DNA of 64,000 bases. Source: Pseudomonadota bacterium. Its GTDB lineage: Bacteria > Desulfobacterota > Binatia > Binatales > Binataceae. The position numbers were made by a program, and so were the translations under genes. Under the pieces are notes generated by a model. It was not told the origin of the DNA. It saw nothing but the letters and a program-made list of their open reading frames with translations, and ran no database searches. Location of the stretch: positions 74,646 through 138,645 of the forward strand of contig JAJPHZ010000022.1 of the NCBI GenBank assembly GCA_021325025.1, read 5' to 3'. Below, piece after piece: positions 10 through 15,692 of this stretch (positions within the stretch are counted from its first letter, which is position 1; every line of letters begins with the position of its first letter).

Positions 10-564
10 ATGACGATCTCGAGCACACCGGGCAAAGGTTCGGTGTTCACCGTCATCTTCCCGCCCTCGATGGAGGTGCATTGGGAACCGCGGCGCGCCG
101 CCCAGGCCGCGGCCTCCGCAGCGCCGCCGGCGCCGCCGGCGGAAGCGGCGGAGCCAATGCGTGCTGGCACGCCGCGCCCGACCGTGCTGGTGGTCGAAGA
201 CCAGCCCGATCAAGCCCTGTTCATGCGCGCGCTGCTGGAAGGTAAGTACCACGTGGAGATCGCGGCCAACGCGCGGGAGGCGATGGCGCTGCTGGAGCAA
301 CTGGATAAAACGAACCTCCTGATCCTGATGGATCTCTCGCTCAGCGGCGGGGAGGACGGACTGAGCCTGACCCGGCGCATCCGGGCTGATGCCCGGCTGC
401 GCCATATCCCGATTGTGGTCGCCACCGCGCATGCCTTCGAACAGGACCGCGAACGCGCGCTCAGCGCCGGATGCAGCGCCTATCTGGTCAAGCCGCTGGA
501 CGCCGGTCAGTTGCTGACCACGCTCCAAGAGCTGGCCGGTCAAGCTCATCAGGTCAGCGGTTAG
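10..564 (+). CDS. 5'-truncated hybrid sensor histidine kinase: C-terminal HATPase end followed by a fused REC receiver domain
   Basis: The ORF runs in from the window edge. It has receiver-domain hallmarks (VLVVEDQPD...LILMDLSLSGGEDGL...IPIVVATAHA...KPLD) preceded by the tail of a kinase ATPase domain (GKGSVFTVIFP). Confidence 0.7.
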   Translation: MTISSTPGKGSVFTVIFPPSMEVHWEPRRAAQAAASAAPPAPPAEAAEPMRAGTPRPTVLVVEDQPDQALFMRALLEGKYHVEIAANAREAMALLEQLDKTNLLILMDLSLSGGEDGLSLTRRIRADARLRHIPIVVATAHAFEQDRERALSAGCSAYLVKPLDAGQLLTTLQELAGQAHQVSG

Positions 565-586
565 CGCGATGCCGGGGAGCAGGACA

Positions 587-1399
587 ATGAGAATGAGCGA
601 AAACTTCGTGGCAGCGTGGGCTGTGGCCGCAGGCCTGATGCTGGCCGGATGCGCGCCGGTTGCCACCAACGAGGGCGCCGAGCAATGGCGGCCGGTCTCC
701 GCCATGGCGGGCACCAGTCCGCAACTGGCGCAAAGCGAAGGCCGCCTGGCAAGGCAATGCGGCGGCGCGAATGGCGCGCGCGAGTACACCAACGCCACGC
801 TCGGCGAAGAGCGCACCGTCTACCGCATCCAGCGCGGCGACAAGCTGCATTTGACTTTCTACCGCAACGGCGAGTTGGACCGTTACGTCGTGGTGCGCCC
901 CGACGGCCGCTTTACGATTGAGCCGTTCGGCGACGTTTTGGCGGCCGGGCTTACGCCGGCGCAACTGGCGCAAAAGCTCGACGCCATCTTCTCCGAGGCG
1001 CTGTATGAGCCGAGCGCGGCAGTCAGCGTCATCGACAGTCCCTTCCGCAAGGTCTTTGTCGGCGGGCAGGTCAATTACCCCGGAGCGGTCAATCTGCGGC
1101 CGGGCATGACCGCCACGCAGGCGATTATCTCTACCGGATGGTTTCGCGATGATGCGCGCTACGACCAGATCGTGCTGATCCGGCGCGACGCCTGCGGAGA
1201 GGCCTACGGCACCTTTATTCAGGTGGCCAAGGCGGTGGCGCAGGCATCGGACAATCACCTGCAGGACGTGGCGCTGCTGCCCAACGACATCATCGTGGTG
1301 CCGCGCACCACGATCGGCAACCTCAACCTGTTCGTCAAGCAATACATCCGGGGCATGCTGCCGATGGAGCCCTATCTGAGCCTGGGGCCGCCGCTGTAA
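587..1399 (+). CDS. Wza-like polysaccharide export outer-membrane lipoprotein (Poly_export + SLBB domains)
   Basis: Lipobox LAGC after a signal peptide. Poly_export-type motifs are present (YRIQRGDKLHLTFY, PDGRFTIEPFGDV) followed by an SLBB-like segment (VFVGGQVNYPGAVNLRPGMTATQAI). A GGGGAG RBS sits 7 nt before ATG 587. Alternative starts are 569 and 593. Confidence 0.8.
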   Translation: MRMSENFVAAWAVAAGLMLAGCAPVATNEGAEQWRPVSAMAGTSPQLAQSEGRLARQCGGANGAREYTNATLGEERTVYRIQRGDKLHLTFYRNGELDRYVVVRPDGRFTIEPFGDVLAAGLTPAQLAQKLDAIFSEALYEPSAAVSVIDSPFRKVFVGGQVNYPGAVNLRPGMTATQAIISTGWFRDDARYDQIVLIRRDACGEAYGTFIQVAKAVAQASDNHLQDVALLPNDIIVVPRTTIGNLNLFVKQYIRGMLPMEPYLSLGPPL

Positions 1400-1423: not shown

Positions 1424-2956
1424 ATGAAACATCACGAGCCCGCGGTTTGGCTGGAGACGATTTGGCGCCGGCGCCGCCCCGCCGCCTGGACGGCGGCGGG
1501 GCTGTTCGCGCTGATCGCGGCCGGCACCTTTGCATATCCGCCGATTTATGAATCCAGCGCGCGGGTTCTGGTCTCGCCCAACCGCGCCCACTATATCGTA
1601 TCGCCCGCCCTGCAATCGGCCAGCGACCCTAACGCGCCGGTGGTCAACGACCGCGAGATCGGCGAGCAGGACCTCAACTCCGAAATGGAGCTGATCACCC
1701 AGCGCCGCCTGATCGAGCAGGCTCTGGCGGATATGGCGGGGCGCGAGCCGGCGCCCAGCCTGCTCGGCCGCGCGCTCAACGCGCTGGCCGGCCTGCCGGT
1801 CGAGCTCAGCGCGATGCTGCACGGCGCGCCGCGGCCGACCGCGCTGCAGCGCCGGGCGCGGGCGGCGGAACGGCGCCTGTCGGCCAGCGTGATTCGCAAG
1901 TCCGATCTGCTGGAAGTCTCCTTCCGCTCGCGCCATCCGCAGTGGAGCCGCGAGTTCCTGTCCGCGCTGCTCAAGCGCTACTTCGAACTGCACGCGCAAA
2001 TCGTGCACGACGCGCGCTCCGAGCGCTTCTTCGAGCAGCAGATCCTGCGCCGCCGCCAGGCCCTGCACGCCGCCGAAGACCATCTGCGCGCCGTGCGCGA
2101 GCAGACCGGCATCCTGAGTCTTGCCGATCAGAGTGAAGCGATTGTCTACCAATTGTCGGGGTTTCAGGCCGAGTATCGCAAAAATCACAGCCGCCTGGAC
2201 GGCGTCAACCGCCAAATCGCGGCGCTGGAGGAAGGACTCAAGCAGTCGCCGATGCGTCTGCTCAAGGAGGTCAAGAGCGCGCCCAACCCGGCTTATGAGG
2301 CGCTCAAACCCAAGGTGCTGGCGCTCCAACTCAATCGCGACGACGTGCTGCGGCGCTATCGCCCCTCCAGCAAGCTGGCGCGCGAGGTAACCCAACAGAC
2401 TGCCAACGCCCAGAGTGTGCTGGAGCAGGAAGATTATCCCAAGGTGATCGAGCGGCTGAGCGACCTCAGTCCGATATGGCTGGGGCTCGCCTCCAATCTG
2501 GCGCAGGCGCGCGTGACCGCGGCGGCGCTGGCGCAAAGCCAGCGCACGCTGGCGGCCGAAATACAGACCTATCAAGCCGAACTGCAGCGTCTGACCAATG
2601 ACGGAGTGGAAGTGGAGCGGGCTGTGCGCGAGGTGGAGGCGGGCAATGAGGCGTATCTCTCCTACCTGCGCAAGGGCGAGCAGGCGCGCGCCGAGCTGCA
2701 ATTGAACGAAAGCCGAATCATGAACGTGGTGTTGGCGATGCCGCCCACCGAACCCATCGAACCGCGGTTTCCCCGTGCCGACCTCAACCTCGCCGCCGGC
2801 CTGGTGTTGGCGCTGTTTGCGGGTCTGGCCGCGGCGTGGTGGGAGGAGCGCCGCGATCCCACCATTTACTCGGCCGCGGCCATTGCAGAATCCGCGCCGG
2901 CGCCGGTTGTCGCGGTGCTGCGCGCGTGCGCGAAACCGGGCGCCGCCGGCGCCTGA
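1424..2956 (+). CDS. Polysaccharide co-polymerase / chain-length determinant (Wzz/GumC-like, PCP family, no kinase domain)
   Basis: N-terminal TM helix, a Wzz-like motif (PPIYESSARVLV), a long coiled-coil periplasmic region and a C-terminal TM helix (LNLAAGLVLALFAGLAAAWWEERRDP). A GGGGGGA RBS precedes the ATG. Confidence 0.75.
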   Translation: MKHHEPAVWLETIWRRRRPAAWTAAGLFALIAAGTFAYPPIYESSARVLVSPNRAHYIVSPALQSASDPNAPVVNDREIGEQDLNSEMELITQRRLIEQALADMAGREPAPSLLGRALNALAGLPVELSAMLHGAPRPTALQRRARAAERRLSASVIRKSDLLEVSFRSRHPQWSREFLSALLKRYFELHAQIVHDARSERFFEQQILRRRQALHAAEDHLRAVREQTGILSLADQSEAIVYQLSGFQAEYRKNHSRLDGVNRQIAALEEGLKQSPMRLLKEVKSAPNPAYEALKPKVLALQLNRDDVLRRYRPSSKLAREVTQQTANAQSVLEQEDYPKVIERLSDLSPIWLGLASNLAQARVTAAALAQSQRTLAAEIQTYQAELQRLTNDGVEVERAVREVEAGNEAYLSYLRKGEQARAELQLNESRIMNVVLAMPPTEPIEPRFPRADLNLAAGLVLALFAGLAAAWWEERRDPTIYSAAAIAESAPAPVVAVLRACAKPGAAGA

Positions 2957-2967
2957 GAAGCAAGGAG

Positions 2968-3687
2968 ATGAAAGTGCCCGACACTGCACAGGTAGCAGGC
3001 GCGCCGCAACCCGCACCGACGGCCGCCGCCATCCAGGGGGCGCCGGTCGCTGAACCGGCAATGCTCATGGTGCGCAGCGCAGGAATCCGGATGCTGACCG
3101 AACCGATCGCGGCGGCGGCCCGCCTGACGGGCCATACACGGGTCCTGATCGCCGCCTGCCGCCCCGGCGACGGCGCATCGACGGTAGCCGGCGCCCTGGC
3201 CCTGGACCTGGCGAGCCGACTCGGCATCGACACGCTGCTGGTTACCGCCGACGGCGCCGGTGCTGAAAGCCCGGCCGCCGGCAATGGCCGTCCGGTGCGG
3301 ACCAACCAAACCGGTGTGCCGCATCTGTGGCTCGCGCGCTGTACCAGATCCGGCGAGCCGGCGCGCGGCGGCGCGGCTGACGGCGAGCGTGCCGAGCGCG
3401 ACGCCGTCGTCGAGGAGCTGCGTGCGATCATCGGGCGTTATCGCGCCGCAATCATCGACCTCGGCGTGGTGCGCCTGGATGCACGCATGCTGGCGCTGGC
3501 GCGTCCCGAAGATCCGGTACTGGTGGTGGCGCGCTACGGATGCACGCAGCGCGAGGAACTGGCCGCCACACTGGCCGTAATCAACGTGGCCAACGCCAAA
3601 AGCGCCGGCGTGATTCTCAACGGCTACGAAAGTCCGGCCGCCGATCGGCTGCCGTGGATTTCGCATCCGGAGCACGAAGGGCGATGA
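2968..3687 (+). CDS. Degenerate BY-kinase/MinD-like P-loop protein (predicted pseudo-kinase partner of the PCP)
   Basis: AAGGAG RBS 2962-2967 then ATG 2968. A Walker-A-like segment (VLIAACRPGDGASTVAGALALDLA) resembles BY-kinase SxxGEGKST but lacks the Lys. The Walker-B-like segment (AAIIDLGVV) lacks the DxPP signature. Confidence 0.55.
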   Translation: MKVPDTAQVAGAPQPAPTAAAIQGAPVAEPAMLMVRSAGIRMLTEPIAAAARLTGHTRVLIAACRPGDGASTVAGALALDLASRLGIDTLLVTADGAGAESPAAGNGRPVRTNQTGVPHLWLARCTRSGEPARGGAADGERAERDAVVEELRAIIGRYRAAIIDLGVVRLDARMLALARPEDPVLVVARYGCTQREELAATLAVINVANAKSAGVILNGYESPAADRLPWISHPEHEGR

Positions 3688-4760
3688 ATCGGTCCGACAT
3701 CGGCGGCGATGGCCCGCCGGTCACAGCGCGCCGGCTGCGCGGAGTAGCAGTGGTGGGACTTGGTTACTGGGGACCCAACTGGGTGCGCAATCTGCAAGCC
3801 AGCGGGGTTTGCGATCGGATCGTAGCCTGCGACCTCGACGCCGCGCGCCGCCGCCACGTGGAACGGCTTTACCCGGGGGTGCGCACCTTCTCCAGTATCG
3901 ATCCGATCCTGGCCGACCCCGAAATCGAAGCGGTTATCATCGCCACTCCGGTGCACACCCATTGGGAGCTGGGGCGCCGATGCCTTGGGGCGGACAAATC
4001 GCTGCTGGTGGAAAAGCCACTGGCCTCCTCGGTCAAGCAGTGTGCGGAGCTGATCGAGATGGCGGCGGCGCGTGGTCTGGTGCTGATGGTCGGCCACACC
4101 TTCGAGTACAGCGCCTCGGTCATCAAGCTGTGCGAAATCGTCAATGCCGGCGAACTGGGCGAGATTTTCTACATCAGCTCCATCCGCACCAACCTGGGTC
4201 TGCTCCAGCAGGACATCAACGTGGTGTGGGACCTGGCGCCGCACGACATCTCGATCATCCTGGCGATTTTGGGCCGCGCCCCCGAATCGGTGAACTGCCA
4301 GGGGCGCAGCCACTACAACCCCGGCATCGAGGACGTCGCGATGCTGACCATGAGCTTTTCGGGCAACGTGATCGCCTTTGTGCATGTCAGTTGGCTGGAT
4401 CCCAACAAGATTCGCCGCATCACCGTGGTCGGTTCGCGCAAGATGCTGATCTACGACGACATCGCCTACCAGGAGCCGATCCGCATTTATGACAAGGGCG
4501 TCAGCGTGCTGCCCTACTACGACACCTTCGGCGAGTTCCGCTTCACCTACCGCTACGGCGACATTCTGGCGCCGCGGGTGGCGGAGGCCGAACCGCTCAA
4601 GGCCGAAACCGAGCACTTTATCGATTGCGTGCTGAACAAGCGCCGGCCGCGCAGCGACGGATTAAGCGGCCTGCGCGTGGTCAGCGTGCTGGAGGGGGCC
4701 GACGCCTCGCTGCGCCGCGACGGCGCGCTGGTGCCGGTCAAATACGCGGTGGCGAAATGA
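3684..4760 (+). CDS. Gfo/Idh/MocA-family NAD-dependent sugar-nucleotide dehydrogenase (WbpB/WlbA-like UDP-GlcNAcA 3-dehydrogenase)
   Basis: Rossmann motif VAVVGLGYWGPNWVRNL and Gfo/Idh/MocA core (EKPLASSVKQCAELIEMAAARGLVLMVGHTFEY). The ATGA start/stop overlaps the upstream gene. Confidence 0.75.
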   Translation: MNRSDIGGDGPPVTARRLRGVAVVGLGYWGPNWVRNLQASGVCDRIVACDLDAARRRHVERLYPGVRTFSSIDPILADPEIEAVIIATPVHTHWELGRRCLGADKSLLVEKPLASSVKQCAELIEMAAARGLVLMVGHTFEYSASVIKLCEIVNAGELGEIFYISSIRTNLGLLQQDINVVWDLAPHDISIILAILGRAPESVNCQGRSHYNPGIEDVAMLTMSFSGNVIAFVHVSWLDPNKIRRITVVGSRKMLIYDDIAYQEPIRIYDKGVSVLPYYDTFGEFRFTYRYGDILAPRVAEAEPLKAETEHFIDCVLNKRRPRSDGLSGLRVVSVLEGADASLRRDGALVPVKYAVAK

Positions 4761-5257
4761 GCAATTCCTCTCTGCCGCCCAATGTCGTGGTGGCGCCCGA
4801 TGTCAAGCTGGGCCGCGGCGTCAGGCTGTCGCCCTTCGTCAACCTCTACGGCTGCTCGATCGGCGAGGAGACCACCATCGGGGCGTTTGTCGAAATCCAG
4901 CGCGGCGCCAGGATCGGGCGGCGCTGCAAGATCTCCAGCCATAGCTTTGTGTGCGACGGCGTGGAAATCGAGGACGAAGTCTTCGTCGGCCACGGCGTGG
5001 TTTTCATCAACGATCGCTATCCGCGCGCCACCAACCCGGACGGCTCGCTCAAAAGCGCGGGGGACTGGGCGATGGAACGGACCGTGGTGCGCCGGCGCGC
5101 GGCGATCGGCAGCGGCGCCGTGATCATGTGCGGAGTTGAAATCGGCGAGGGCGCGTTGGTGGGAGCGGGCGCGCTGGTCACGCGCAACGTCGCGCCCGGA
5201 GCGCTGGTGGCGGGAAATGCCAGCCGTCACTACGCCGGTGTGGCACCCCGGGATTAG
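4757..5257 (+). CDS. Left-handed beta-helix (hexapeptide-repeat) N-acetyltransferase, WbpD-like
   Basis: Repeated hexapeptide [LIV]-G-x-x-x-x units (VKLGRGVRLSPFVNLYGCSIGEETTIGAFVEIQRGARIG...). Its position between the WbpB-like and WbpE-like genes fits. ATGA overlap with the upstream stop. Confidence 0.75.
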   Translation: MSNSSLPPNVVVAPDVKLGRGVRLSPFVNLYGCSIGEETTIGAFVEIQRGARIGRRCKISSHSFVCDGVEIEDEVFVGHGVVFINDRYPRATNPDGSLKSAGDWAMERTVVRRRAAIGSGAVIMCGVEIGEGALVGAGALVTRNVAPGALVAGNASRHYAGVAPRD

Positions 5258-5265
5258 GTCGGCAT

Positions 5266-6396
5266 ATGAGTATCAAATTTCTGGATCTGGCGGCGCAAAA
5301 TCGCGAAATCGCCCAGCGTGCCGCCCGCGAGTTGGAGGCGCTGCACGCCGCGACCAGTTACGTGGGCGGTCCGGCGCTGGCCGCGTTCGAGCGGGAGTTC
5401 GCCGCCTACCTCGGGGTCAAGTACGTCGTCGGCGTCGGCAGCGGCAGCGACGCCCTGCGCCTGGCGCTGCTCGCACTGGGTATCGGCCCGGGCGATGGCG
5501 TGATCACGGTGCCGATGACCTTCATTGCCACCGCGGCGGCCATCGTGCAGGCGGGCGCGGTGCCCGAATTCGTCGACGTCGATCCCTCGACCTGCAACCT
5601 CAGTCCCGACCATCTGTGCCGCTACCTGGAGGCGGGGCGCTTCCGGTCGCCCAACGGACCACGCGCCGTAATCCCGGTGGACCTCTACGGGCTGCCCTGC
5701 GCGATGGACCAGGTCGCCGCGATCGCGCACCAGTATAAACTGCTGGTAGTCGAAGATGCCTGTCAGGCGCATGGTGCGCGGCTGTCAGTAGGGGGCCGAT
5801 GGGTCCGGGCGGGCACGCTCGCCGACGCCGGCTGCTTCAGCTTCTATCCGGCCAAGAACCTGGGCTGCTGGGGCCAGGGCGGTGCGCTTGCCACCAACGA
5901 CGAACGGCTGGCCGCGGTCGCGGCGCGGCTGGCCGACCACGGCCGCACGTCCCATTATGGACACGAGGCTTACGGCTACAACGCCCGGCTCGACACGCTC
6001 CAGGCGGCGGTGCTGCGCGCCAAGCTGGAGCATCTGGAGGACTGGAACCGGCGCCGGCGCGCGATTGCCGCGCGCTACCGCGAACTGCTCAACGGCTGCG
6101 GCGCGCTGCTGCCCGAGGAACCGGCAGGATTGGAATCCTGCTACCATCTGTTCACCATCCGCAGCGCCCGGCGCGACGCCATCCGCGCGGCGCTCAACGC
6201 GGCCGCAATCGGCAACGGCATCCATTATCCGCTCCCGCTCCACCTGCAGCCGGCCTGCGCCGCGCTGGGTTATCGGCCGGGCGATTTTCCCGCCAGCGAA
6301 CGCATCGCCGAAACCACCCTGTCGCTGCCGATGCATCCGCATCTGACCGACGACGAGGTCGCAACCGTCGCCGCAGTGGTACGCGGCGCGTTGTAG
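5266..6396 (+). CDS. DegT/DnrJ/EryC1/StrS-family PLP-dependent sugar aminotransferase (WbpE-like)
   Basis: Family-typical N-terminus (ELEALHAATSYVGGPALAAFEREFAAYLGVKYVVGVGSGSDALRLAL) and length of about 375 aa. Confidence 0.8.
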   Translation: MSIKFLDLAAQNREIAQRAARELEALHAATSYVGGPALAAFEREFAAYLGVKYVVGVGSGSDALRLALLALGIGPGDGVITVPMTFIATAAAIVQAGAVPEFVDVDPSTCNLSPDHLCRYLEAGRFRSPNGPRAVIPVDLYGLPCAMDQVAAIAHQYKLLVVEDACQAHGARLSVGGRWVRAGTLADAGCFSFYPAKNLGCWGQGGALATNDERLAAVAARLADHGRTSHYGHEAYGYNARLDTLQAAVLRAKLEHLEDWNRRRRAIAARYRELLNGCGALLPEEPAGLESCYHLFTIRSARRDAIRAALNAAAIGNGIHYPLPLHLQPACAALGYRPGDFPASERIAETTLSLPMHPHLTDDEVATVAAVVRGAL

Positions 6397-6407: not shown

Positions 6408-7064
6408 ATGGCGGCTAGCGCGACGCGCTCGGACCTGCGCGCCTTTAATCCAGTGCGCAAGCGGGTTCTGGACCTGGTGCTGCTGGTCCCAATCCTGCTG
6501 GTGGCCGGGCCGCTGATGGCGCTGGTGGCGCTGGCGATTTGGCTGTGCGACGGCCGCCCGATTCTGTTTCGCCAGGTGCGCCTGGGAATGGGTGGACGGC
6601 CGTTTGAAATGCTCAAGTTCCGCACCATGCGTCCGGCCAGCGACGCGGCCCATCGCGAGTACGCCGCCCGATGGATCGAACAAGGCCGCCCATTCAGCGA
6701 CGGAGATGGCGCGGTCTACAAAATGGCGGACGATCCGCGCATCACACGCCTGGGCGCCATCCTGCGCCGCTTCAGCCTGGACGAACTGCCCCAGCTCATC
6801 AACGTCGTGCGCGGCGAGATGAGTCTCATCGGGCCGCGGCCGGCGATTCCTTACGAAGTCGAGCATTACCAGCCCTGGCATCGCCGCCGCCTGGAGGCGC
6901 CGCCGGGGCTGACCGGGCTGTGGCAGGTAAGCGGACGCAACCGGCTGTCGTTCGACGAGATGGTACGCCTGGACATCGACTACATCGATCACTGGTCGGT
7001 GGCGCGCGACCTGGCCATCCTGGCGCGAACGCCACGCGCGGTTCTTGCGGGAGAAGGGCGATGA
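6408..7064 (+). CDS. Small bacterial sugar transferase (polyprenyl-phosphate phosphoglycosyltransferase, PglC/EpsL-like)
   Basis: AGGAGGGG RBS then ATG 6408. One N-terminal TM helix followed by the Bac_transf core ([24 protein letters not shown]...[21 protein letters not shown]). Confidence 0.8.
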
Positions 7065-8560
7065 AACGGGAGGCCGCGCATGCTCCTCGCGCCCAGGCCG
7101 ACGACCGCCGGCTGTGGCGGGCATTCGCCCGCAGCGTGCTGTTCAACGTGCAGGCCGAGTTGGTTGCCAACCTGATTCGGGTGGGCGGCGTGATTTTTCT
7201 GGCGCGCGCCCTGGAGCCGCGCGACTTCGGCCTGCTGCGCATCCTGATCGTGCTCGGCGCGATCGCCGCGCTGATCGGCACCGCCGGGTTTCCCGAAGCG
7301 GTCATCCAGCGCAAGGAACTGTCGGGCGAGCATCAGACCACCGCCTGCTACCTGACCGCGGCGTGCGCCGGCGCGGTCGCCGCGATGCTGTTCGCCGCTG
7401 CGCCGCTGATTGAACGGCTGATGGCGATGGGGCATCTGGGTGCGATGATTCGCCTGCTGTGCGTGCCGATCTTTGTCGAAGGCACCTCGGCAATCCCCAA
7501 CGCCATCCTGCAACGCGCGCTTCGCTACGACGCGCTGGCCGCCGCCGACATCATCGCGGAGGGCGGTTTCGTCGCCGCCGCCGTCGCGTTGATTTACCTG
7601 GGGTTGCCCCGCCTCAGCCTGCCCGGCGGTCTGGGTGCACGCGCCCTGCTGCGCGGCGTCGCGATCTGGGCCGCGGCACGATTTGTTCCACGCGGCGCGC
7701 CCAGCCTGGGCGCCGCGCGCGAGCTATGGCCGTTTGCGGTCAGTGTGCTGGGCGGACAGACCCTGGTGATCCTGTCGCAAAACGCGGACTACGTGATGGT
7801 TGGACGGCTGCTGGGCGGCCGCGCGCTGGGCTTCTACGGCATGGCCTGGGACCTGCTGCGTTTCATCCCCGAACGCCTGTACCGGGTGGTAGGCCGCGTC
7901 ACACTGCCCGCCTTCAGCGCCATCTAGGAGCGGCAAAGCGAGCTGGCGCGCAGCTATCGCGCACTGATCGCGATGGTCGGGCGGATGCTGCTGCCGGCGA
8001 TGGCGCTGCTGGCGATCGCGGCTCCCAAACTGATTGTTACGATCTACGGGACAAAGTGGATGCCCGCCGCGCTGCCGCTGCGGCTGCTCACACCCGGACT
8101 GGCGCTGATCGGACTGCGCCTGGCGATCGGCTCCATCTACTATGCGCGCGGCTTTCCCGCCACCGACATTTTCGTCCACGGCCTGCGGTTGATCGCAATC
8201 GTGGCGGCGGTGGGGCTGACGGCGCCGCTGGGATTGGCGGCGGTGTGCGCCGCGATGAGCGCGGTGGAAGGCGCCGTGAGCGTGGCCGGGCAGTGGATCG
8301 TCTGCCGCATGATCAGGCTGGGTGCGTTGACCTTGGCCGCCGCCACCCTGCCGGGATTGTACAGCGCGGTGCTGTGTTCGGTGGTTGCGCTGGCCGGTGC
8401 GGCGCTGGCGGCGTGGCTGGCGGTGGCGGCGTGGCTGGCGCTGCTGGTGATGCTGGCGCCGGCGGGAGCCGCGTGGTGCTGGCGCGAACGCGCCACCGTG
8501 CGCGTGCTGTTGGGCGGCACGGACTTGCTCTCCAGCGCCGCCGAAGCGATGGGAGGATAA
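7061..8560 (+). pseudogene. Wzx-type polysaccharide flippase (MOP superfamily) interrupted by an in-frame TAG at 7925-7927
   Basis: ORFs 7061..7927 and 7973..8560 are in the same frame (both coordinate mod 3 = 2). Together they read as one typical 12-TM Wzx (...LPAFSAI*ERQSELARSYRALIAMVGRMLLPAMALLAIAAPKLIVTIYGTKWMPA...). TAG is used as a genuine stop elsewhere in this window (6394-6396). Confidence 0.55.
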
Positions 8561-8563
8561 CGC

Positions 8564-9427
8564 GTGACGCCACGCTATCTTGCCATCACTCCGGCGCGCG
8601 ATGAGCAACGCTTCCTGCCCGGACTGATCGCCAGCATGCGCGCGCAAACCATCGCACCGCAGCGCTGGATCATCATCGACGACGCCTCCACCGATTGCAC
8701 CGGCGCCATCATCGACGAGGCCGCCCGCACAACGCCGTGGATTGAGCCGCATCATCTGAAATCGGATCGCCCGCGCCAGGCCGGCGGCGAATCGGTAATC
8801 ATGCGCTTTCTTACCCGCGATCGATGGCAGGACATGGACTTCATCTTCCGCCTCGACGCCGACTTGAGTTTCGGTCCCGACCTGGTCGCGTTGCTGCTTG
8901 CCGAATTTGAGCGCGACCCGCGCCTGGGCATCGCCAGCCCGATCCTGGCCGAGCCGGCCGGTGGCGGAAGATGGAAGGATGTTGCGCTGCGTCCGATGCA
9001 CACCCGAGGGGCGGCCAAGATGTACTCGCGCGCGTGCTTTGAAGTGGTGGGAAAGCTCGAACCCGAGCTGGGTTGGGACGTGATTGACGGGGTGCGAGCC
9101 CAGATGGCGGGGTTCAGGACGCGCACCTTTTCTCATATCCGCTGCTTTCACCATCGGCCGCAAGGCTCCGCCGGCGGCCGGCTGCGCGGGCACTACGCGC
9201 TGGGCCGCTCCGCCTGGTACGTGGGCTATTCGCCGCTGTTCCTGCTGGCCGCAGCCCTGCGGCGCATCGCTGAGCCGCCCTTCGCGTTGGGCTCGCTGAT
9301 GATTATCGCCGGATACCTGGAGGGTCTGGTGAAACGCCGTCCGCGCGTGGACGATCCCGACCTGATCAGGTTTGTACGCCGCCAACAGCGCCGGCGCCTG
9401 CTGCTGATGGACTCGCTGTGGAGCTGA
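8564..9427 (+). CDS. Family 2 glycosyltransferase
   Basis: GT-A N-terminus (LAITPARDEQRFLPGLIASMRAQTIAPQRWIIIDDASTD). GGGAGGA RBS then GTG start at 8564. Confidence 0.7.
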   Translation: MTPRYLAITPARDEQRFLPGLIASMRAQTIAPQRWIIIDDASTDCTGAIIDEAARTTPWIEPHHLKSDRPRQAGGESVIMRFLTRDRWQDMDFIFRLDADLSFGPDLVALLLAEFERDPRLGIASPILAEPAGGGRWKDVALRPMHTRGAAKMYSRACFEVVGKLEPELGWDVIDGVRAQMAGFRTRTFSHIRCFHHRPQGSAGGRLRGHYALGRSAWYVGYSPLFLLAAALRRIAEPPFALGSLMIIAGYLEGLVKRRPRVDDPDLIRFVRRQQRRRLLLMDSLWS

Positions 9428-9431
9428 GCTT

Positions 9432-10652
9432 GTGCTGGGGGGACACGAACAGAGCGCCGCACCGGTCAGCGCGCCTCAACCCGTAGCGCGCAGCGCGGCG
9501 ATGCCGGCGCAAAAGCGCGCCATGATGCTGGGGTACCTGACCTACAGCATCGACGCGCGGGTCAAGCGCCAGGTCAAGACGCTGGCCGCGGCCGGCTACG
9601 CCGTGGACGTGATTTGCCTGGCGGACGACATCGGCCAGGCGCGCGACGCCAATCTGATCGGTATCAAGGTGCCGCATTACCGGGGCCTCAGCCGCTGGCG
9701 CTATGTCCGCGCCTACGCAACGTTTTTCATCAAAGCCGCCTGGACCGCGGCGTGCCTGGCGATACGCCATCGCTACGACGTCGCGATCGTCTGCAGCATG
9801 CCCGACTTCATCGTCGCCTGCGCGCTGGGACCCAAGCTGCGCGGCGCGACCATCGTGCTCGACGTGCACGATCCGATGCCGGAACTCTACCGCGTCAAAT
9901 TCGGGCGGCCGGCCGGATGTCTGGGCGAACGGTTGCTGATGCTGGAGGAGCGGGTCAGCGCCTGGATGGCGGACCGGGTCCTGGCCACCCACGACCTGCA
10001 TCTCAGCCGGCTGGTGCAAGCGGGCATTCCGCGCAGCAAGCTGCGCGTCGTGCTCAACGCGCCCAATCCCGAGTTGTTTCCTTACAGCGACCGCCCGCTG
10101 CGGCGCGGCGGCGGTCTGCGCCTGGTCTATCAGGGCACGATGTCGGCGCGGCTGGGGATCGATGTGGCGATCCGCGCAATGCGCCTGCTGCGGGCACGCA
10201 TCCCGGGAATCGAACTGCTGCTGATCGGGAACGGCGAAGCGCTGGAGGATTACAAGCGGCTGGCTGGCGCGCTGGAGGTGGCGGACATCGTGCGCTTCGA
10301 GCCGCCCATCCCCGTGGAGCGCATCGCGCCGGTCCTGCATTCGTGTTCGATTGGCGTGGTCCCCAATCGCGACAATGCCGCCACCCGCCTGATGCTGCCG
10401 GTCAAGCTGATGGAATACGCGATGCTCGGGGTTCCGATCGCGGCGGCGCGGCTTGCGCCAATCCTGCAGTATTTCGACGCGCGTGCGGTGGAATTCTTCG
10501 AGCCGGAGAATCCGGCTGATCTGGCCGCCGCAATCGTGCGGCTTTATGAAAATCCCGACCGCCTTGCGCAAATGGCGGCCGCCGCCAATCGCGTCGCGCT
10601 GCGGCTGAGCTGCGGGTGGAGCGAAAACTACCTGGAGGCGATCGCATCGTGA
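9432..10652 (+). CDS. Family 4 (GT-B) glycosyltransferase
   Basis: C-terminal GT4 core (RLVYQGTMSARLGIDVAIRAMRLL...IELLLIGNGEALEDYKRLAG...LMEYAMLGVPIAAARL). The start is uncertain: GTG 9432 or ATG 9501 / ATG 9522 (MMLGYLTY begins the first beta strand). Confidence 0.7.
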   Translation: MLGGHEQSAAPVSAPQPVARSAAMPAQKRAMMLGYLTYSIDARVKRQVKTLAAAGYAVDVICLADDIGQARDANLIGIKVPHYRGLSRWRYVRAYATFFIKAAWTAACLAIRHRYDVAIVCSMPDFIVACALGPKLRGATIVLDVHDPMPELYRVKFGRPAGCLGERLLMLEERVSAWMADRVLATHDLHLSRLVQAGIPRSKLRVVLNAPNPELFPYSDRPLRRGGGLRLVYQGTMSARLGIDVAIRAMRLLRARIPGIELLLIGNGEALEDYKRLAGALEVADIVRFEPPIPVERIAPVLHSCSIGVVPNRDNAATRLMLPVKLMEYAMLGVPIAAARLAPILQYFDARAVEFFEPENPADLAAAIVRLYENPDRLAQMAAAANRVALRLSCGWSENYLEAIAS

Positions 10653-12574
10653 GCGCACCCACCATTGAGTTCCGCCCCTGGCCGGGCGAGCCGCATTACA
10701 CATCGCTCACCGCTGCCGCGCTCTTCATCGCGGCCCTTTCGATTTGGGCGCTGGCCGTGATGTTGTTCGCACCCGCCGCGATTACGACCCTGGCCCTGTT
10801 CGCCATCGCGCTGCTGTTGGTGTCGGCCGGCCTTGCCTACCAGCGCTCGGACTGGCGCATGCTCGCGTTGCTGCTGGTGGTCGAGGCGCTGCCGTCGGCC
10901 AATCTGCTGCCGATCACCGAAGATCAGCGCCCGCTGGTGCGCTATCCGCTGTACCTGTTCTTCTGCGTTCCAATGCTGCCCAAAGTATGGCGTTCGGGAA
11001 TTCTCTCGCACGGCGGTTTCCGTCTGTATTCGATCTACTTCGCTTGGGCACTGTTGAGCGCTACGTGGTCGCTGGTGCCGATATTCTCCTTCGGCCGCGC
11101 CCTGGCCTCGACCCTGCTGTTCGTGGCGCTGTGCTCGATCGCCCTCGACATCGCCGACAACGACGCGCTGCTGCGCGTCATCCGCTATGTGTTGGCGGCC
11201 TGCGCGATCCTCACCGCAATCATCGCGGTTACCGCCTTCATCCCCGGACTGGAATCCGCCTGGATGTTCGACGCCGAGTTGGGCGCCTATCGCCTGCAAG
11301 GCATCTTCGACTCGCCCAACCAGGTCGGCGAGGTGAACATGATAGCGATCGGCGCGGCGCTGGCCAGTTGGCAGTCCCTGCGTACCCGCACCTACAAGCT
11401 CGGTGCTGCGTTGCTGATCGTGGTCTCGGTGCTGATGATGGTCGCGGCGGACTCGCGCTCGGCGGCGGTTGCGATGATCGTGAGCATGGCGGCGCTGGCG
11501 ATCTGGCGCTTTGGATGGCGCGGCGTGTTCGGGGTGATGGTGGGCGTAGCGGCCGGGGTGTTCGTAGCCGGTCAGTTAAGTCCGCAGGCGCTGCTGTACC
11601 TGACCCGCAGCGACGTCGCAACGCTAACCGGCCGCACCCAGGTGATGCATTTTTCGCTGCATCGAGTGATGGAAAATCCGCTGCTCGGTTATGGTTTCGG
11701 CGCCGAGGGACAAATCTTCCACAACCGCTATTTCCCGTTGTGGGAAGACCTGTGGACGTGGGGACCGCGCATCCCCATCCATAACGGCTATCTCTCGCGT
11801 GCCGTCGGACTGGGCGTGCCCGCCGCGCTGCTGTGGGCGTTTTTGTTTGCGCGCCCGTTCGTGGTGCTGTTCAGCCGGCCCGCGGACCCCTACGGACTGC
11901 GCAAGCCCGTGGTGTTGCTGCTCGTGCTGCCGGTGCTCATTTTGTATCTGAGCGAAACCCTGGGCGGCGATTGCCGCTTCCCGGCCGGAATCGTCAGCAC
12001 GCTGGTGTGGGCGGTGGCAGAAAAGGAACGCCTGCGCGCCACGGGCGCGTTGCCTGCGCGCAATCAGTCGGCCTCAACCCCGGCGCCCGTGGTGCCCCGG
12101 CGCGCAATGTCCCGCCTGTTGTTCCTCGCCGGTTTCATCTTGCCAATAACCATCGCGTCCGCGCGCAGCGCCCACGCCTACCGCCTGCATGTCCCGTGCA
12201 CCAGCAGCCACGATTGCCCGCGCGGCGCGTTTTGCCGCCATAAGACGAATTTCCGCGGCCAGTGCATCGTGCCGCCCCTGATGCCGTTCGGCGTGTTTGA
12301 ACGGCGCCAGATCGAATTTCCCGCCCAGCCCCTTCCTTTCGAGCACGCGCCGGGCTCGATAGCGGTGCTGCGATGCTCGGTCAAAGAGCCCTGTCCGCCC
12401 GGCTTCGTGTGCGCGAAATACGGCACCTCCAGTCTGAAAGAATCGCTGTGTGTGCCTTCCTCCGAACCGTGCTGGTCAACCGCCGACTGCGCTCCGGAGG
12501 ACATCTGTGACAAGGCCAACGATGAATTCAGCCTCACCGGCGTCTGCCGGCCGCGCGAGGAGGTCGGGGAATAG
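10649..12574 (+). CDS. O-antigen polymerase/ligase-family membrane protein (Wzy-like) with a C-terminal Cys-rich extracytoplasmic extension
   Basis: GTG start overlaps the upstream stop (GTGA). Multiple TM helices and a Wzy_C-like loop (VLMMVAADSRSAAVAMIVSMAALAIW...HFSLHRVMENPLLGYGFG). The C-terminal roughly 130 aa carry three Cys-rich units (HDCPRGAFCRH...GQC; EPCPPGFVCAKYG...SLC; EPCWSTADCAPEDICDK...GVC). Confidence 0.7.
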   Translation: MSAPTIEFRPWPGEPHYTSLTAAALFIAALSIWALAVMLFAPAAITTLALFAIALLLVSAGLAYQRSDWRMLALLLVVEALPSANLLPITEDQRPLVRYPLYLFFCVPMLPKVWRSGILSHGGFRLYSIYFAWALLSATWSLVPIFSFGRALASTLLFVALCSIALDIADNDALLRVIRYVLAACAILTAIIAVTAFIPGLESAWMFDAELGAYRLQGIFDSPNQVGEVNMIAIGAALASWQSLRTRTYKLGAALLIVVSVLMMVAADSRSAAVAMIVSMAALAIWRFGWRGVFGVMVGVAAGVFVAGQLSPQALLYLTRSDVATLTGRTQVMHFSLHRVMENPLLGYGFGAEGQIFHNRYFPLWEDLWTWGPRIPIHNGYLSRAVGLGVPAALLWAFLFARPFVVLFSRPADPYGLRKPVVLLLVLPVLILYLSETLGGDCRFPAGIVSTLVWAVAEKERLRATGALPARNQSASTPAPVVPRRAMSRLLFLAGFILPITIASARSAHAYRLHVPCTSSHDCPRGAFCRHKTNFRGQCIVPPLMPFGVFERRQIEFPAQPLPFEHAPGSIAVLRCSVKEPCPPGFVCAKYGTSSLKESLCVPSSEPCWSTADCAPEDICDKANDEFSLTGVCRPREEVGE

Positions 12575-12623
12575 CGGTAACGCGCGCGCCCCGATCTCCA
12601 AACAAGGCGCGCGGAGCGCGGCG

Positions 12624-13487
12624 ATGGGCCTGATTGGCAACACCCCGTTGACCGTGCTGCGCGCCGCCGGCCGGACCTCGCGCTTGATTGCCGGCCTCGG
12701 CGCGCGCTCCGCAGGCGGGCGCTGCCTAATCCTGACCTACCATGACTTCGTCGACCGCGCCGCCGCCGACCTGTTTGCGCGGCAGATGCAATATCTAAGC
12801 GTTGCCGCAAGTGTGGTCACGCTGGACGCGCTGCTTGAGGCGGCGCACCGCGGCGCATCTCACGGCATCCGCTGCGCAATCACCTTCGACGATGGCTACG
12901 AAGCGGTTTACCGCGAGGCCCTCCCGCATCTGCAGGAACATGGCTTTCCGGCGACGCTATACCTCGCGAGCGGTTTCATCCGCGAATCATTGAATTTCGC
13001 CGATTGCAGCGGGCGGTCGGGACTGCGCCCGGGACGCCCGATGCTGTCATGGCGCCAGGTGCGTGAACTGGACCGATGCGGCGTATGCGTCGGCTCGCAC
13101 ATGAGCGAGCATGGCGATCTGTCGGTTTTAGGCAGGCACGAGGCGATGGAGCAGTTGCGCCGCTCGCGCATCGAGATAGAGCAGCGCCTGGGCAAGCGCT
13201 GCGAGCATTTCGCCTATCCCTTCGGCCGCTTCACCGCGCAGGCTGTGCAGTGGGTGCGCGAAGCGGGGTTTCGCACCGCCGCGACCACGGTGCATCGGCC
13301 GCTGCGCGCCAACGACGATCTCTTGAGGCTGCCCAGGGCGGGCATCCAGGAGCGCTATTCGCTGGAGGATTTCAAAAGCATCATCCGCGGCGACTGGGAC
13401 TTCATCGGCCTGCTCCAAACCCTGCGCCGCCCCGCCTTGCGGATGACTTGTGCGCGCGCTACGCGGTCACCTTACCCCGGTTCGTAA
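12624..13487 (+). CDS. Polysaccharide deacetylase (NodB-homology / CE4 family)
   Basis: NodB motifs: TFDDGY (motif 1), H-x4-H-like CVGSHMSEHGDL, and FAYPFG (motif 3-like). Confidence 0.7.
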   Translation: MGLIGNTPLTVLRAAGRTSRLIAGLGARSAGGRCLILTYHDFVDRAAADLFARQMQYLSVAASVVTLDALLEAAHRGASHGIRCAITFDDGYEAVYREALPHLQEHGFPATLYLASGFIRESLNFADCSGRSGLRPGRPMLSWRQVRELDRCGVCVGSHMSEHGDLSVLGRHEAMEQLRRSRIEIEQRLGKRCEHFAYPFGRFTAQAVQWVREAGFRTAATTVHRPLRANDDLLRLPRAGIQERYSLEDFKSIIRGDWDFIGLLQTLRRPALRMTCARATRSPYPGS

Positions 13488-14030
13488 GTAGTGTAGTCTG
13501 ATGTTTTGTCCCTGATTGCGGTAGTCGAGCAAAGGGTTCATCGAAGTTTGGCGCTGTGACTACAGCTGGCCCCGCCCGCGTGCCTTGGAGCGCAAGACTC
13601 TTAGAGCGGCCGTTTCGGCGTATCAGCACGACGGAGGACAGATCCCATCTTGGGACTCGCTGATTCGGCCCACTTTGGCCATGTTCTTACGCGCCCAATT
13701 CGCACCCATCGCCATGCTATAAGAGACTCCCCTCAAGGGGCGAGTTCCAGGCGGGGCGGCGCTCGAATTTCTTTCCGTCCAAGTGCCTATCGAAGGCGAT
13801 AGATATATTTCACTGGCCTTGGTTCATTACACTATCCGTGGCGCGTGACCCTCACGCTGAGAGGATTTTTCGACATGTGTGCCAGATTCGGACCGTGCGC
13901 CGCCGGCGATCCATCGCTTGTCCGCGGTTGGCATCGCCTGCCGGCAGCGCCGCGCACGCGAAAAAAATTTCGGTGGTGGAGCGGGTGTCCGGGGTTATCA
14001 TCTTTGAAGACTTTTGCCTTGGAGCATGCC

Positions 14031-14504
14031 ATGTGCAGACATCTTCTACTTGCCGCCCTGGTGCTGATGCCGGGATGCAGCGCGGTCAACTGGCAGAACT
14101 TCACCAGCTCTGCGCCCCAGCAAACCGTCGAGGCGCACCGCTTTGTGCTGGTTGACGCAAACGGTAAGCCGATCGCGGAATTAGGCGCGGCGCCGGGCGG
14201 TTCGGGACTGGTGCTGATGGATTCCACCGGCAAGCCGCGCGCCGCGCTGGTGCTGACCCGCAGCGGCGAACCGGGCCTGAAACTGTACGATCGCGCCGGC
14301 GTGGTGCGGGCGGCCCTGGTGGTCGCCAATGACGGCCGCTCGGGGGTGGCCCTTTATGATGAGCACAGCCGCAACCGCGCGGCACTAGCTACCAACCCTC
14401 AAGGCGCGGCAGCGCTGATGCTGTTGGACGGCGCCGGCCAACCCACCGCGGTCCTGCCTTCCTCCCCTGCACGCGGCACGCCGGCCAGCGCGCAATCAGG
14501 ATGA
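14031..14504 (+). CDS. Small secreted lipoprotein of unknown function with tandem roughly 17-aa repeats
   Basis: Lipoprotein signal MCRHLLLAALVLMPGC. At least five degenerate repeats of the form [LV]-x-D-x-x-G-K/Q-P-x-A-x-L (VLVDANGKPIAEL, VLMDSTGKPRAAL, KLYDRAGVVRAAL, ALYDEHSRNRAAL, MLLDGAGQPTAVL). Confidence 0.5.
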   Translation: MCRHLLLAALVLMPGCSAVNWQNFTSSAPQQTVEAHRFVLVDANGKPIAELGAAPGGSGLVLMDSTGKPRAALVLTRSGEPGLKLYDRAGVVRAALVVANDGRSGVALYDEHSRNRAALATNPQGAAALMLLDGAGQPTAVLPSSPARGTPASAQSG

Positions 14505-15692
14505 CCAACGCAGATCGGAATGCTTGGCGTGCTGCAAACGCGTGCCGCAGTTGCGGCATCCGGCGCTATGGCGCTCCAACAACGCCGAACACCCCGGGCA
14601 TCGGCGGCTCGTCGCGCGCACGAATCCATAGGCGCTCGCCGCCGACAACATCATCACGATCGCCATCGCCGCCGCGGTTGGAAGCGATGGGTTCGGGATA
14701 TCCGAAAAACTCCCGCTGATGGTCCAGTTCTGAATGTGTTGTCCGGCCGGCCGAATCGCCGGTGGCTCGGGAGCGACCGCGATCGAGGTTAGGAGTGAGT
14801 CGCCGGGATTGACGACCAGCACCGGTGCGGCCTGCTGAATCGCACCGGTCCCGTCGCGGCTGCGCGCCGGCGCCTCGGGCATCCTCTGATCGGGCCGTCT
14901 CACAACAGTTTGATCGGGCCGCTTCACAACAGAGGGAGCACGCGCCGCTTGCGGCATGGCCGGCGGGGCATCAGCAGCCAGAGCAGCGCGCCGTTGGGGC
15001 GGCGGGTCCGAATGCCGCGAACGTACCGGTGCTTCATCGGACTGATCCTGGTCGGTGGAGGTGGAGGGATGGTCCGCTCCGGTGCTGGAGGCGGCATTGG
15101 ATGATACCGACACGGACACGCGCGCGGTCGCATCTACCGCAGCCGTCACGCTGGGCAGCGCGGGCAGGCCGTTGACCGCCGAACTCAAGGCGGCGTCGGC
15201 GGAAGCAGCCACGGCGGCGGCCGCCGCCGCCGTGTAGCCCAACGCCTGCGCCATCCCTCGATCCGGCTGGAATGGCCCGACGCCCATTTGCAGGGCCGCT
15301 CTTTGCGCCGCCAGCGCTGCGCCGTCGGTGGTGCCGCTGACCGAATCCGTCGTTGACAGCGATGCCGTGGTACCACTGCCGCTGACATCGGCGCCGCCGC
15401 CGGCAGAGGTGCTGGCGCCGGCCGCAGCACCGCCGCTGCCAATCGCGGCGCCGCCGCTCGCTCCAACGCTGCCGCCGCCAACCGACAGGCCCGTGCTCGC
15501 ACCTACGCCGCCGCTGCCGCCAGGGGCCACGCCCGCCCCGATTGCAACCCCGGGCGCGCCGACACCCACCGACACGCCGCCCACCGCGACGCTCACGCCG
15601 CCAAATCCCAGGCAGGGCCAAGCGCCGAAGAACAACCCGGCCACACCGAACGACACCGCGGCAACCACCCTGATTATGCGCGCAAAGCTCAT
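14496..15692 (-). CDS. Gly/Ala/Ser-rich low-complexity membrane protein with a C-terminal CxxC-x10-CxxC zinc ribbon (unknown function)
   Basis: GAGGAG RBS 9 nt upstream of the ATG on the minus strand. An N-terminal hydrophobic segment is followed by a long GASV-rich region, a second TM helix (LPTAAAMAIVMMLSAASAYGFV), then CPGCSALLERHSAGCRNC. Only short ORFs lie on the opposite strand. High GC inflates ORF lengths, so confidence is moderate. Confidence 0.4.
   Translation of the reverse strand: MSFARIIRVVAAVSFGVAGLFFGAWPCLGFGGVSVAVGGVSVGVGAPGVAIGAGVAPGGSGGVGASTGLSVGGGSVGASGGAAIGSGGAAAGASTSAGGGADVSGSGTTASLSTTDSVSGTTDGAALAAQRAALQMGVGPFQPDRGMAQALGYTAAAAAAVAASADAALSSAVNGLPALPSVTAAVDATARVSVSVSSNAASSTGADHPSTSTDQDQSDEAPVRSRHSDPPPQRRAALAADAPPAMPQAARAPSVVKRPDQTVVRRPDQRMPEAPARSRDGTGAIQQAAPVLVVNPGDSLLTSIAVAPEPPAIRPAGQHIQNWTISGSFSDIPNPSLPTAAAMAIVMMLSAASAYGFVRATSRRCPGCSALLERHSAGCRNCGTRLQHAKHSDLRWSS

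Follow-up and report, generated by a model that had tools for sequence, protein, structure and literature searches.

Exopolysaccharide (EPS) synthesis in Myxococcus xanthus requires EcpK, a pseudokinase of the bacterial tyrosine kinase (BY-kinase) type, which is paired with EpsV, a polysaccharide co-polymerase (PCP) of the PCP-2 type that lacks a kinase domain (Blocher et al. 2025; PMC12004946). EcpK has a BY-kinase fold without Walker motifs or a tyrosine tail and binds to the C-terminus of EpsV, and a third, phosphorylation-independent subfamily of PCP-2 proteins was proposed in which the pseudokinase serves as scaffold (PMC12004946). In Caulobacter crescentus, holdfast synthesis requires both HfsB and HfsA; the former stabilises the latter, and their interaction was modelled via the last 27 residues of HfsA (PMC12004946). 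Further pairs, e.g. SYN_00779/00780 of Syntrophus, are credited in the same paper to Cuthbertson et al. (2009). Here, a gene for a 239-residue protein was analysed that follows the gene of a kinase-less PCP on a 64,000-nucleotide stretch of a Binataceae contig (JAJPHZ010000022.1 of assembly GCA_021325025.1, positions 74,646 to 138,645; referred to as the window). The original prediction, made from the letters of the window, had described the product as a degenerate BY-kinase-like P-loop protein, retained as a pseudo-kinase scaffold within the export machinery. The gene encodes a true homolog of BY-kinase domains with the BY-kinase P-loop fold, and the catalytic lysine of Walker A is missing throughout its family.

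A BY-kinase fold without the catalytic motifs

The open reading frame (ORF) is present on the forward strand and codes for 239 aa:

2968..3687, + strand: candidate BY pseudokinase gene, for a stand-alone cytoplasmic BY-kinase fold without catalytic motifs

A Shine-Dalgarno sequence (AAGGAG, 2962-2967) directly abuts the ATG at 2968, and an alternative start, GTG 2974, lies 6 nt downstream at better spacing. Because this spacing and the conserved N-termini of the homologs (MSNTAQV.., MPNTVQV..) fit better with the GTG, the true product is probably the protein of 237 aa that starts at 2974. Public gene calls place the start at M42, which gives 198 aa. The residue numbers below refer to the 239-aa product. 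A homolog search gave 134 proteins (~250 aa, several from metagenome-assembled genomes (MAGs) of Candidatus Binataceae), which their sources call either 'hypothetical' or 'Mrp family chromosome partitioning ATPase'.

As a single sequence, the protein matched the kinase region of NCBIfam TIGR01005 with an E-value of 1.9e-5, and TIGR01007 and TIGR03018 were matched as well. The scores were far below the curated cut-offs (21.8 versus 108, 19.2 versus 230.7 and 23 versus 411.7 bits), none of TIGR01007, TIGR03018, TIGR03029 and TIGR01005 being reached, and neither Pfam nor NCBIfam holds a model that catches the family above cut-off. Thirty family members, when scanned, gave weak matches to the same BY-kinase families of NCBIfam (best E 7e-13). 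A profile built from 30 members found CapA1B1 as the best match in the PDB (E 4e-11), followed by VpsO (1.5e-9), CapAB (~3e-8), BceF (1.3e-7), Wzc (5.6e-6), Etk (1.6e-4) and MinD (0.011). Alignment of the family (113 members) to 20 canonical BY-kinase domains with hhalign yielded a probability of 99.9% and an E-value of 2.4e-32, with Ala on the position of the Walker A Lys and D-L-G-V on that of D-x-P-P. The AlphaFold2 model, computed from the 113-sequence alignment, has a mean pLDDT of 82.4 and a pTM of 0.77 and shows a seven-stranded sheet with flanking helices; in a Foldseek search of the PDB, all of the top 50 hits were BY-kinase domains (BceF, Wzc, Etk, CapB and VpsO; E ~1e-7, TM-scores of 0.5–0.64). 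A resemblance to BY-kinases of this degree lies far outside what chance would give. Profile, hhalign and Foldseek searches all lead to BY-kinase domains, in line with the layout that had been read from the sequence, and the P-loop NTPase fold, whose absence had been named in advance as a refutation, is seen in the model.

The equivalence of the motifs was set by hhalign and HMMER alignments, and residues were counted over 202 unique family sequences, 200 of which are aligned at Walker A (the other two have gaps there). Three elements correspond to the nucleotide-binding motifs of BY-kinases:

3154..3183, + strand: remodelled P-loop A63-C-R-P-G-D-G-A70-S-T72 in place of Walker A, from hhalign columns and family counts
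3232..3258, + strand: Walker A' remnant T89-LLVTADGA97, DxDxR lost in the clade of the window
3448..3474, + strand: Walker B remnant A161-IIDLGVVR169, Asp164 kept and two prolines replaced

The strings quoted in the original prediction were found at residues 66-75 (PGDGASTVAG) and 162-168 (IIDLGVV), and the replacements read from them hold for the family. Where canonical BY-kinases have S-x-x-P-G-x-G-K-S-T, the family consensus is GCRPGDGAST. The codon equivalent to Lys (GCA, 3175-3177) specifies Ala70; in the 200 aligned members this position is Ala (148), Val (39), Thr (8), Ser (3) or Cys (2) and never Lys, so the intact Walker motifs in orthologs that would have pointed to a sequence error here were not found. 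Other P-loop positions hardly vary: C64 is present in 200, D68 and G69 in 197 each, S71 in 192 and R65 in 182 of the 200 members. The Walker A' motif, canonically LLVDaDLRxP (hhhhDxDxR), reads LLVDAHLRHP in the main clade, which keeps only the first Asp and the Arg (LVDAHLRHP), and LLVTADGAG in the window. In Walker B, the canonical VViDsPPV (hhhhDxxP) is represented by VIDLGVVR in the family and IIDLGVVR in the window; the Asp is kept (D164, codon at 3457-3459) and both Pro positions are taken by Gly and Val, as predicted for the DxPP element. Conservation in this region is again high (D164 in 196, G166 in 197 and R169 in 194 of 197 members).

The features outside the nucleotide site are degenerate as well. 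The window protein holds only three Tyr residues (157, 190 and 220), none of them in a C-terminal cluster, and the sole Tyr of its tail is that of GYES. The last 25 residues contain no Tyr in 106 of the 202 members, one in 90, two in 5 and three in 1; the absence of an obvious Tyr cluster noted in the window protein is therefore a property of the family, 196 of 202 members having none or one. The EX2RX2R motif, which was defined on helix alpha2 of BY-kinases as an oligomerisation (ring) motif (PMC9800525), aligns in hhalign with A38 (for E), R41 (for R) and T44 (for R). The central Arg alone is left, and it is present in 109 of 194 members.

Conservation of the gene, its presumed PCP partner and the locus

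The substitutions described above are shared by ~200 unique homologs with identities as low as 35%. An exhaustive search of representative sequences gave 52 clusters (50% identity) at E-values below 1e-30, followed by a gap. In a scan with one genome per species, 53 loci were found, all in Binataceae-type MAGs (many labelled 'uncultured delta proteobacterium', one labelled Acidiferrales), with up to three paralogous loci per MAG. Loci L004/L040/L051, L005/L025/L048 and L030/L042/L050 are such sets of three from single MAGs, each consisting of one locus of the window type and two ATPase-containing loci (the gene order is given below). Three paralogous loci in single MAGs imply that, within this lineage, the module has undergone duplication and diversification.

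The gene is under purifying selection. Pairwise ratios of nonsynonymous to synonymous substitutions (dN/dS, Nei-Gojobori) are 0.05–0.27 in the main clade and 0.38–0.41 in the clade of the window; for the window compared with L001, the ratio is 0.38 for the pseudokinase gene and 0.19–0.26 for its neighbours. Together with the absence of Lys from the 200 aligned members, these ratios show that the degenerate motifs are kept in orthologs, which had been put forward as a check. The locus of the window itself is carried by four independent public contigs with 99.98–100% identity over the shared parts. Some frames in other MAGs are broken or run on: L056 (9806-11728), L004 (6984-8150), L050 (9806-11065) and the proteins P0037 and P0152. 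In P0152 (500 aa) the N-terminal part of the PCP is joined to the pseudokinase, and in P0037/L004/L050 the pseudokinase runs on into the next gene, that of the GFO-type oxidoreductase. Frameshifts or misassembly of long-read MAGs seem a better account of these cases than natural fusion.

Outside the family, the Lys is absent from 39 of the next 80 representative BY-kinase-like matches, a count that includes a few family fragments and comes from a biased sample, since the query profile itself is Lys-less. In these proteins (P0182-P0263) the Lys is replaced by V, A, T, C or S. The stand-alone ones are ~210–260 aa long and often carry a C-terminal Y(I/V)PxW..R.L motif; other Lys-less domains are fused to full-length PCPs (e.g. 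P0198, P0204, P0244 and P0257). Judging from these sequences, Lys-less BY-kinase domains seem to be widespread in metagenomes and largely unannotated.

The presumed membrane partner of the pseudokinase is encoded by the gene upstream:

1424..2956, + strand: PCP-2-type polysaccharide co-polymerase, 510 aa, without kinase domain (Pfam Wzz)
2840..2953, + strand: cytoplasmic tail at the C-terminus of the PCP, WEERRDPTIYSAAAIAESAPAPVVAVLRACAKPGAAGA, on which the pseudokinase is presumed to dock

The PCP had been said to lack a cytoplasmic kinase domain, and this is correct. The protein has two transmembrane (TM) helices and a periplasmic domain and ends 37 residues after the second helix (TM2); its matches to TIGR03007 and TIGR01005 are confined to the N-terminal part, with Wzz/GNVR matches only, and all 25 of 25 PCP homologs are ~510 aa long or shorter fragments. 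Across more than 50 loci, the tail follows the consensus (W/Y)WEExRDPxIYSxAAIxExSGLxTVAVL, with 4–11 further residues. Fused PCP-2a proteins that the profile search retrieved have the same pattern after TM2, AFLRExxDxT(V/I)(R/K)Sxx(D/E)(V/I)...LPVL..(V/I)P, which places the split between the two genes where CapA and CapB are split. In position, the tail would then be the counterpart of the activator tail of CapA and of the juxtamembrane segment in fused PCP-2a proteins.

The two genes are part of a co-directional EPS cluster of the Wzx/Wzy type, with an outer-membrane polysaccharide export (OPX) protein, the PCP, a phosphoglycosyl transferase, Wzx, Wzy and glycosyltransferases. The other genes are:

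10..564, + strand: hybrid histidine kinase, 3' end
569..1399, + strand: Wza-like OPX protein (Pfam Poly_export and SLBB; TIGR03027 at 97 bits)
3687..4760, + strand: GFO/IDH/MocA oxidoreductase (GFO), nucleotide-sugar modification
4757..5257, + strand: hexapeptide acetyltransferase (AcT), nucleotide-sugar modification
5266..6396, + strand: DegT aminotransferase, nucleotide-sugar modification
6408..7064, + strand: phosphoglycosyl transferase
7061..8560, + strand: Wzx flippase, interrupted by TAG at 7925-7927
8564..9427, + strand: GT2
9432..10652, + strand: GT4
10616..12574, + strand: Wzy-like polymerase
12450..13487, + strand: polysaccharide deacetylase

The order Wza-PCP-(ATPase)-pseudokinase-GFO-AcT-DegT is kept in all 53 loci where the contig allows; the exceptions are contigs that end early. 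The two ATPase-containing loci of the three-locus MAGs follow this order too. The extra gene between PCP and pseudokinase, present in most loci, encodes an ExeA-like AAA ATPase with a C-terminal LysM domain (e.g. L003 8465-9988, and at the same position in most of L006-L056). Its Walker A motif is intact (GEIGAGKT), and it scores 215 bits, below cut-off, on TIGR03015, the model of the XrtA/PEP-CTERM-associated ATPase. The clade of the window (L001, L004, L005 and L050) has no ATPase gene at this place and has the hybrid kinase upstream instead; tblastn did not find a copy of the ATPase in the 64-kb window, and the gene was either lost from this clade or never present in it. The window begins inside the hybrid histidine kinase/response regulator (409 aa), upstream of which the public contigs L057-L060 encode an Hpt protein, a TetR regulator and an RND efflux pump. 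Since a two-component module directly upstream of wza is found only in the clade of the window, clade-specific regulation of the EPS cluster is suggested. At the distal end of the cluster, two putative genes, 13845..14504 (+) and 14496..15692 (-), have no match to a Pfam or NCBIfam family.

Up to a distance of 10 kb, none of the 53 loci has a second BY-kinase homolog. Within the 64-kb window, neither a further BY-kinase homolog nor an ORF with GxxxxGK[ST] in a convincing context is present, and the family matches of the cluster genes do not include a phosphotyrosine phosphatase. The flippase gene of the window contains an in-frame TAG (..TLPAFSAI*ERQSELARSY..). At this position 42 of 43 related loci have Gln, so the codon represents a CAG-to-TAG nonsense change at a conserved site; public assembly L058 (ENA ERZ27279671), with 100% identity over 11.6 kb, carries the TAG as well.

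Proposed role of the pseudokinase and alternative explanations

Because the Walker A Lys, the Walker A' motif, the Walker B prolines, EX2RX2R and the Tyr cluster are lost, the protein most likely neither hydrolyses ATP nor autophosphorylates, as far as can be judged from its sequence. We consider it probable that the gene encodes a BY pseudokinase, i.e. a non-catalytic partner that docks on the tail of the PCP and supports PCP oligomerisation without tyrosine phosphorylation. The conserved cytoplasmic tail of the PCP would dock on the pseudokinase in the same way as the tails of CapA and EpsV dock on CapB and EcpK, respectively, and the docked pseudokinase would stabilise or organise the PCP oligomer. 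The oligomer, in turn, would couple polymerisation by Wzy to export through Wza, and a cycle of phosphorylation and dephosphorylation would not be involved. A pseudo-kinase retained in the export machinery, as originally proposed, agrees with the published model for EcpK/EpsV and HfsB/HfsA (PMC12004946); for the Binataceae protein, we infer that activity has been lost, that the PCP tail is bound and that the protein serves as scaffold.

Several observations weigh against this explanation. The P-loop is, from the alignments, the best-conserved part of the protein (C64, D68, G69 and S71, plus D164) and has not decayed; such conservation is unexpected for a functionless site and makes ligand binding possible. 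In the clade of the window, the pseudokinase gene evolves about twice as fast as the neighbouring genes. The nonsense codon in wzx may mean that the EPS locus is non-functional in the window strain, or that the flippase is split. A canonical BY-kinase may act in trans, the searches having covered 10 kb around the loci and the 64-kb window. A profile of the PCP tail gave chance matches only in the PDB (melatonin receptors, E ~0.2), and for this reason the equivalence with CapA and PCP-2a proteins rests on position and sequence pattern. Finally, the docked state was predicted at low confidence in a CapAB-style chimera of the last 44 PCP residues and the pseudokinase, with alignment depth for the pseudokinase part only. 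The tail residues VVAVLR form a beta-strand in this model (DSSP E29-34), which requires a pairing partner; their pLDDT is only ~45–50, and that of the tail overall ~37–51. The Foldseek E-values of the same low-confidence chimera against BY-kinase domains were ~70-fold better (BceF, from 1.1e-7 to 1.6e-9).

The alternative that survives best, itself unlikely, is that the protein is a ligand-gated pseudo-enzyme in which the conserved Lys-less P-loop, Asp164 and Arg169 bind a Mg-nucleotide or a phosphorylated ligand without turnover. Occupancy by the ligand, rather than phosphorylation, would then gate the association with the PCP or the assembly of the ring, and in most loci the pseudokinase would act together with the adjacent ExeA-like AAA ATPase. 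The P-loop residues, D164 and R169 are the best-conserved positions of the family, which retains the Ser/Thr that coordinates Mg as well as the Asp of Walker B, whereas all of the motifs are reported to be absent from EcpK; this conservation could, however, equally reflect a structural or protein-binding role. The catalytically inactive K540M variant of Wzc goes over almost entirely to the closed state once ATP-Mg is bound (PMC9800525). On the other hand, affinity for nucleotides normally depends in large part on the Walker A Lys, none of the basic residues that might compensate for it is invariant (R65 occurs in 182 of 200 members), and the clade to which the window belongs has lost Walker A'.

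We regard it as very unlikely that the protein is an active kinase or ATPase of a non-canonical kind, with relocated catalytic residues as in WNK-type kinases and a substrate such as the Tyr in the tail of the PCP (DPxIYS). The fold is complete with seven strands, the Walker B Asp and Ser71/Thr72 are retained, and the Tyr in the tail is frequently conserved; yet a whole subclade has Cys or Ser in place of this Tyr (RICS, RISS), 187 of 200 members carry a small apolar residue, Ala or Val, where the Lys would be, Walker A' and EX2RX2R have degenerated, and no phosphatase family is found among the matches of the cluster genes.

More improbable still is a positioning ATPase of the MinD/ParA/Mrp type that is unrelated to the PCP. 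Many homologs are annotated in this way by JGI, and the protein has weak matches to Pfam AAA_26 and CbiA (the latter at 13.7 bits, below cut-off) and to MinD (E 0.011); BY-kinases, however, are about nine orders of magnitude better than MinD in the profile search of the PDB, and the gene always lies directly after the PCP gene, or after PCP and ATPase genes, in EPS clusters. A MinD/ParA/Mrp identity was rejected, as the deviant Walker A motif KGGxxGK[ST] is absent, CapB is matched at 4e-11 compared with 0.011 for MinD, and the fold matches are all BY-kinases. The least credible explanation, a sequencing error or a recent inactivation confined to this strain, could draw on the nonsense codon in wzx of the same locus and on the raised dN/dS of the window's clade (~0.39), but is all but ruled out by the intact ORF, a dN/dS well below 1, the same substitutions in ~200 homologs with Lys in none of the 200 aligned, and the near-identity of the four independent contigs.

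Comparison with known systems

The preferred reading, a non-catalytic BY pseudokinase, would extend the phosphorylation-independent PCP-2 subfamily to the Binataceae, an uncultured soil lineage. The arrangement appears to be standard there, with as many as three paralogous loci in one genome and without a canonical kinase in the vicinity. The near-full-size fold and the conserved Lys-less P-loop make the family a good system for studying nucleotide binding by BY pseudokinases, and it is also suited for asking how PCP oligomerisation is controlled without tyrosine phosphorylation. Should the protein act as a ligand switch instead, occupancy by the ligand would replace the phosphorylation cycle in the assembly of the PCP ring.

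A comparable gene set is found in the EPS loci of XrtA/PEP-CTERM systems, which comprise an export protein (TIGR03027), a chain-length protein (TIGR03007), a tyrosine autokinase (TIGR03018) and an ATPase (TIGR03015). Wza, PCP and pseudokinase of the window have their best, weak matches on these models, all below the curated cut-offs. The position of the kinase is held by a Lys-less protein in the Binataceae, and the clade of the window does not have the ATPase gene. Among the genes scanned, up to ~29.6 kb of the window, no match to an exosortase family was found.

CapA/CapB of Staphylococcus aureus, a PCP-2b protein with a stand-alone BY-kinase, shows the same split into two genes and a short PCP tail after TM2, and CapA1B1 is the best sequence match of the Binataceae family in the PDB (E 4e-11). 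CapB1 itself is inactive and has been discussed as pseudokinase-like. CapB2 is active and cycled by a phosphatase, with intact Walker A, A' and B motifs, Tyr cluster and EX2RX2R, whereas none of these motifs is intact in the Binataceae protein. On sequence grounds, the latter fails every catalytic feature of the canonical BY-kinases.

The closest parallels are EcpK/EpsV and HfsB/HfsA, where the likeness concerns the functional class, by description, and orthology is not claimed. Like the Binataceae protein, EcpK is a stand-alone BY-kinase fold without the Walker A Lys or a Tyr tail, and EpsV, like the Binataceae PCP, is a kinase-less PCP-2 protein of a Wzx/Wzy pathway with an OPX protein and a C-terminal tail that is proposed to dock. 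The two differ in that the fold of EcpK is trimmed (five strands, with several helices and strands missing) and has no recognisable Walker motifs, while the Binataceae protein has seven strands and keeps a conserved glycine-rich P-loop, the Ser/Thr and the Walker B Asp. Moreover, ecpK is not adjacent to epsV, whereas the Binataceae gene adjoins the PCP gene or is separated from it only by the ATPase gene. HfsB/HfsA, which serves holdfast export, likewise combines a stand-alone BY pseudokinase with a kinase-less PCP-2 protein and differs from the Binataceae pair in lineage and polysaccharide. The Binataceae protein shares with the EcpK/HfsB class those defining features that can be tested, namely the fold, the loss of the motifs, the kinase-less PCP-2 partner and the Wzx/Wzy setting. 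The pairing of a pseudokinase with a co-polymerase was described in 2025, and the Binataceae provide a further, lineage-specific example of it.

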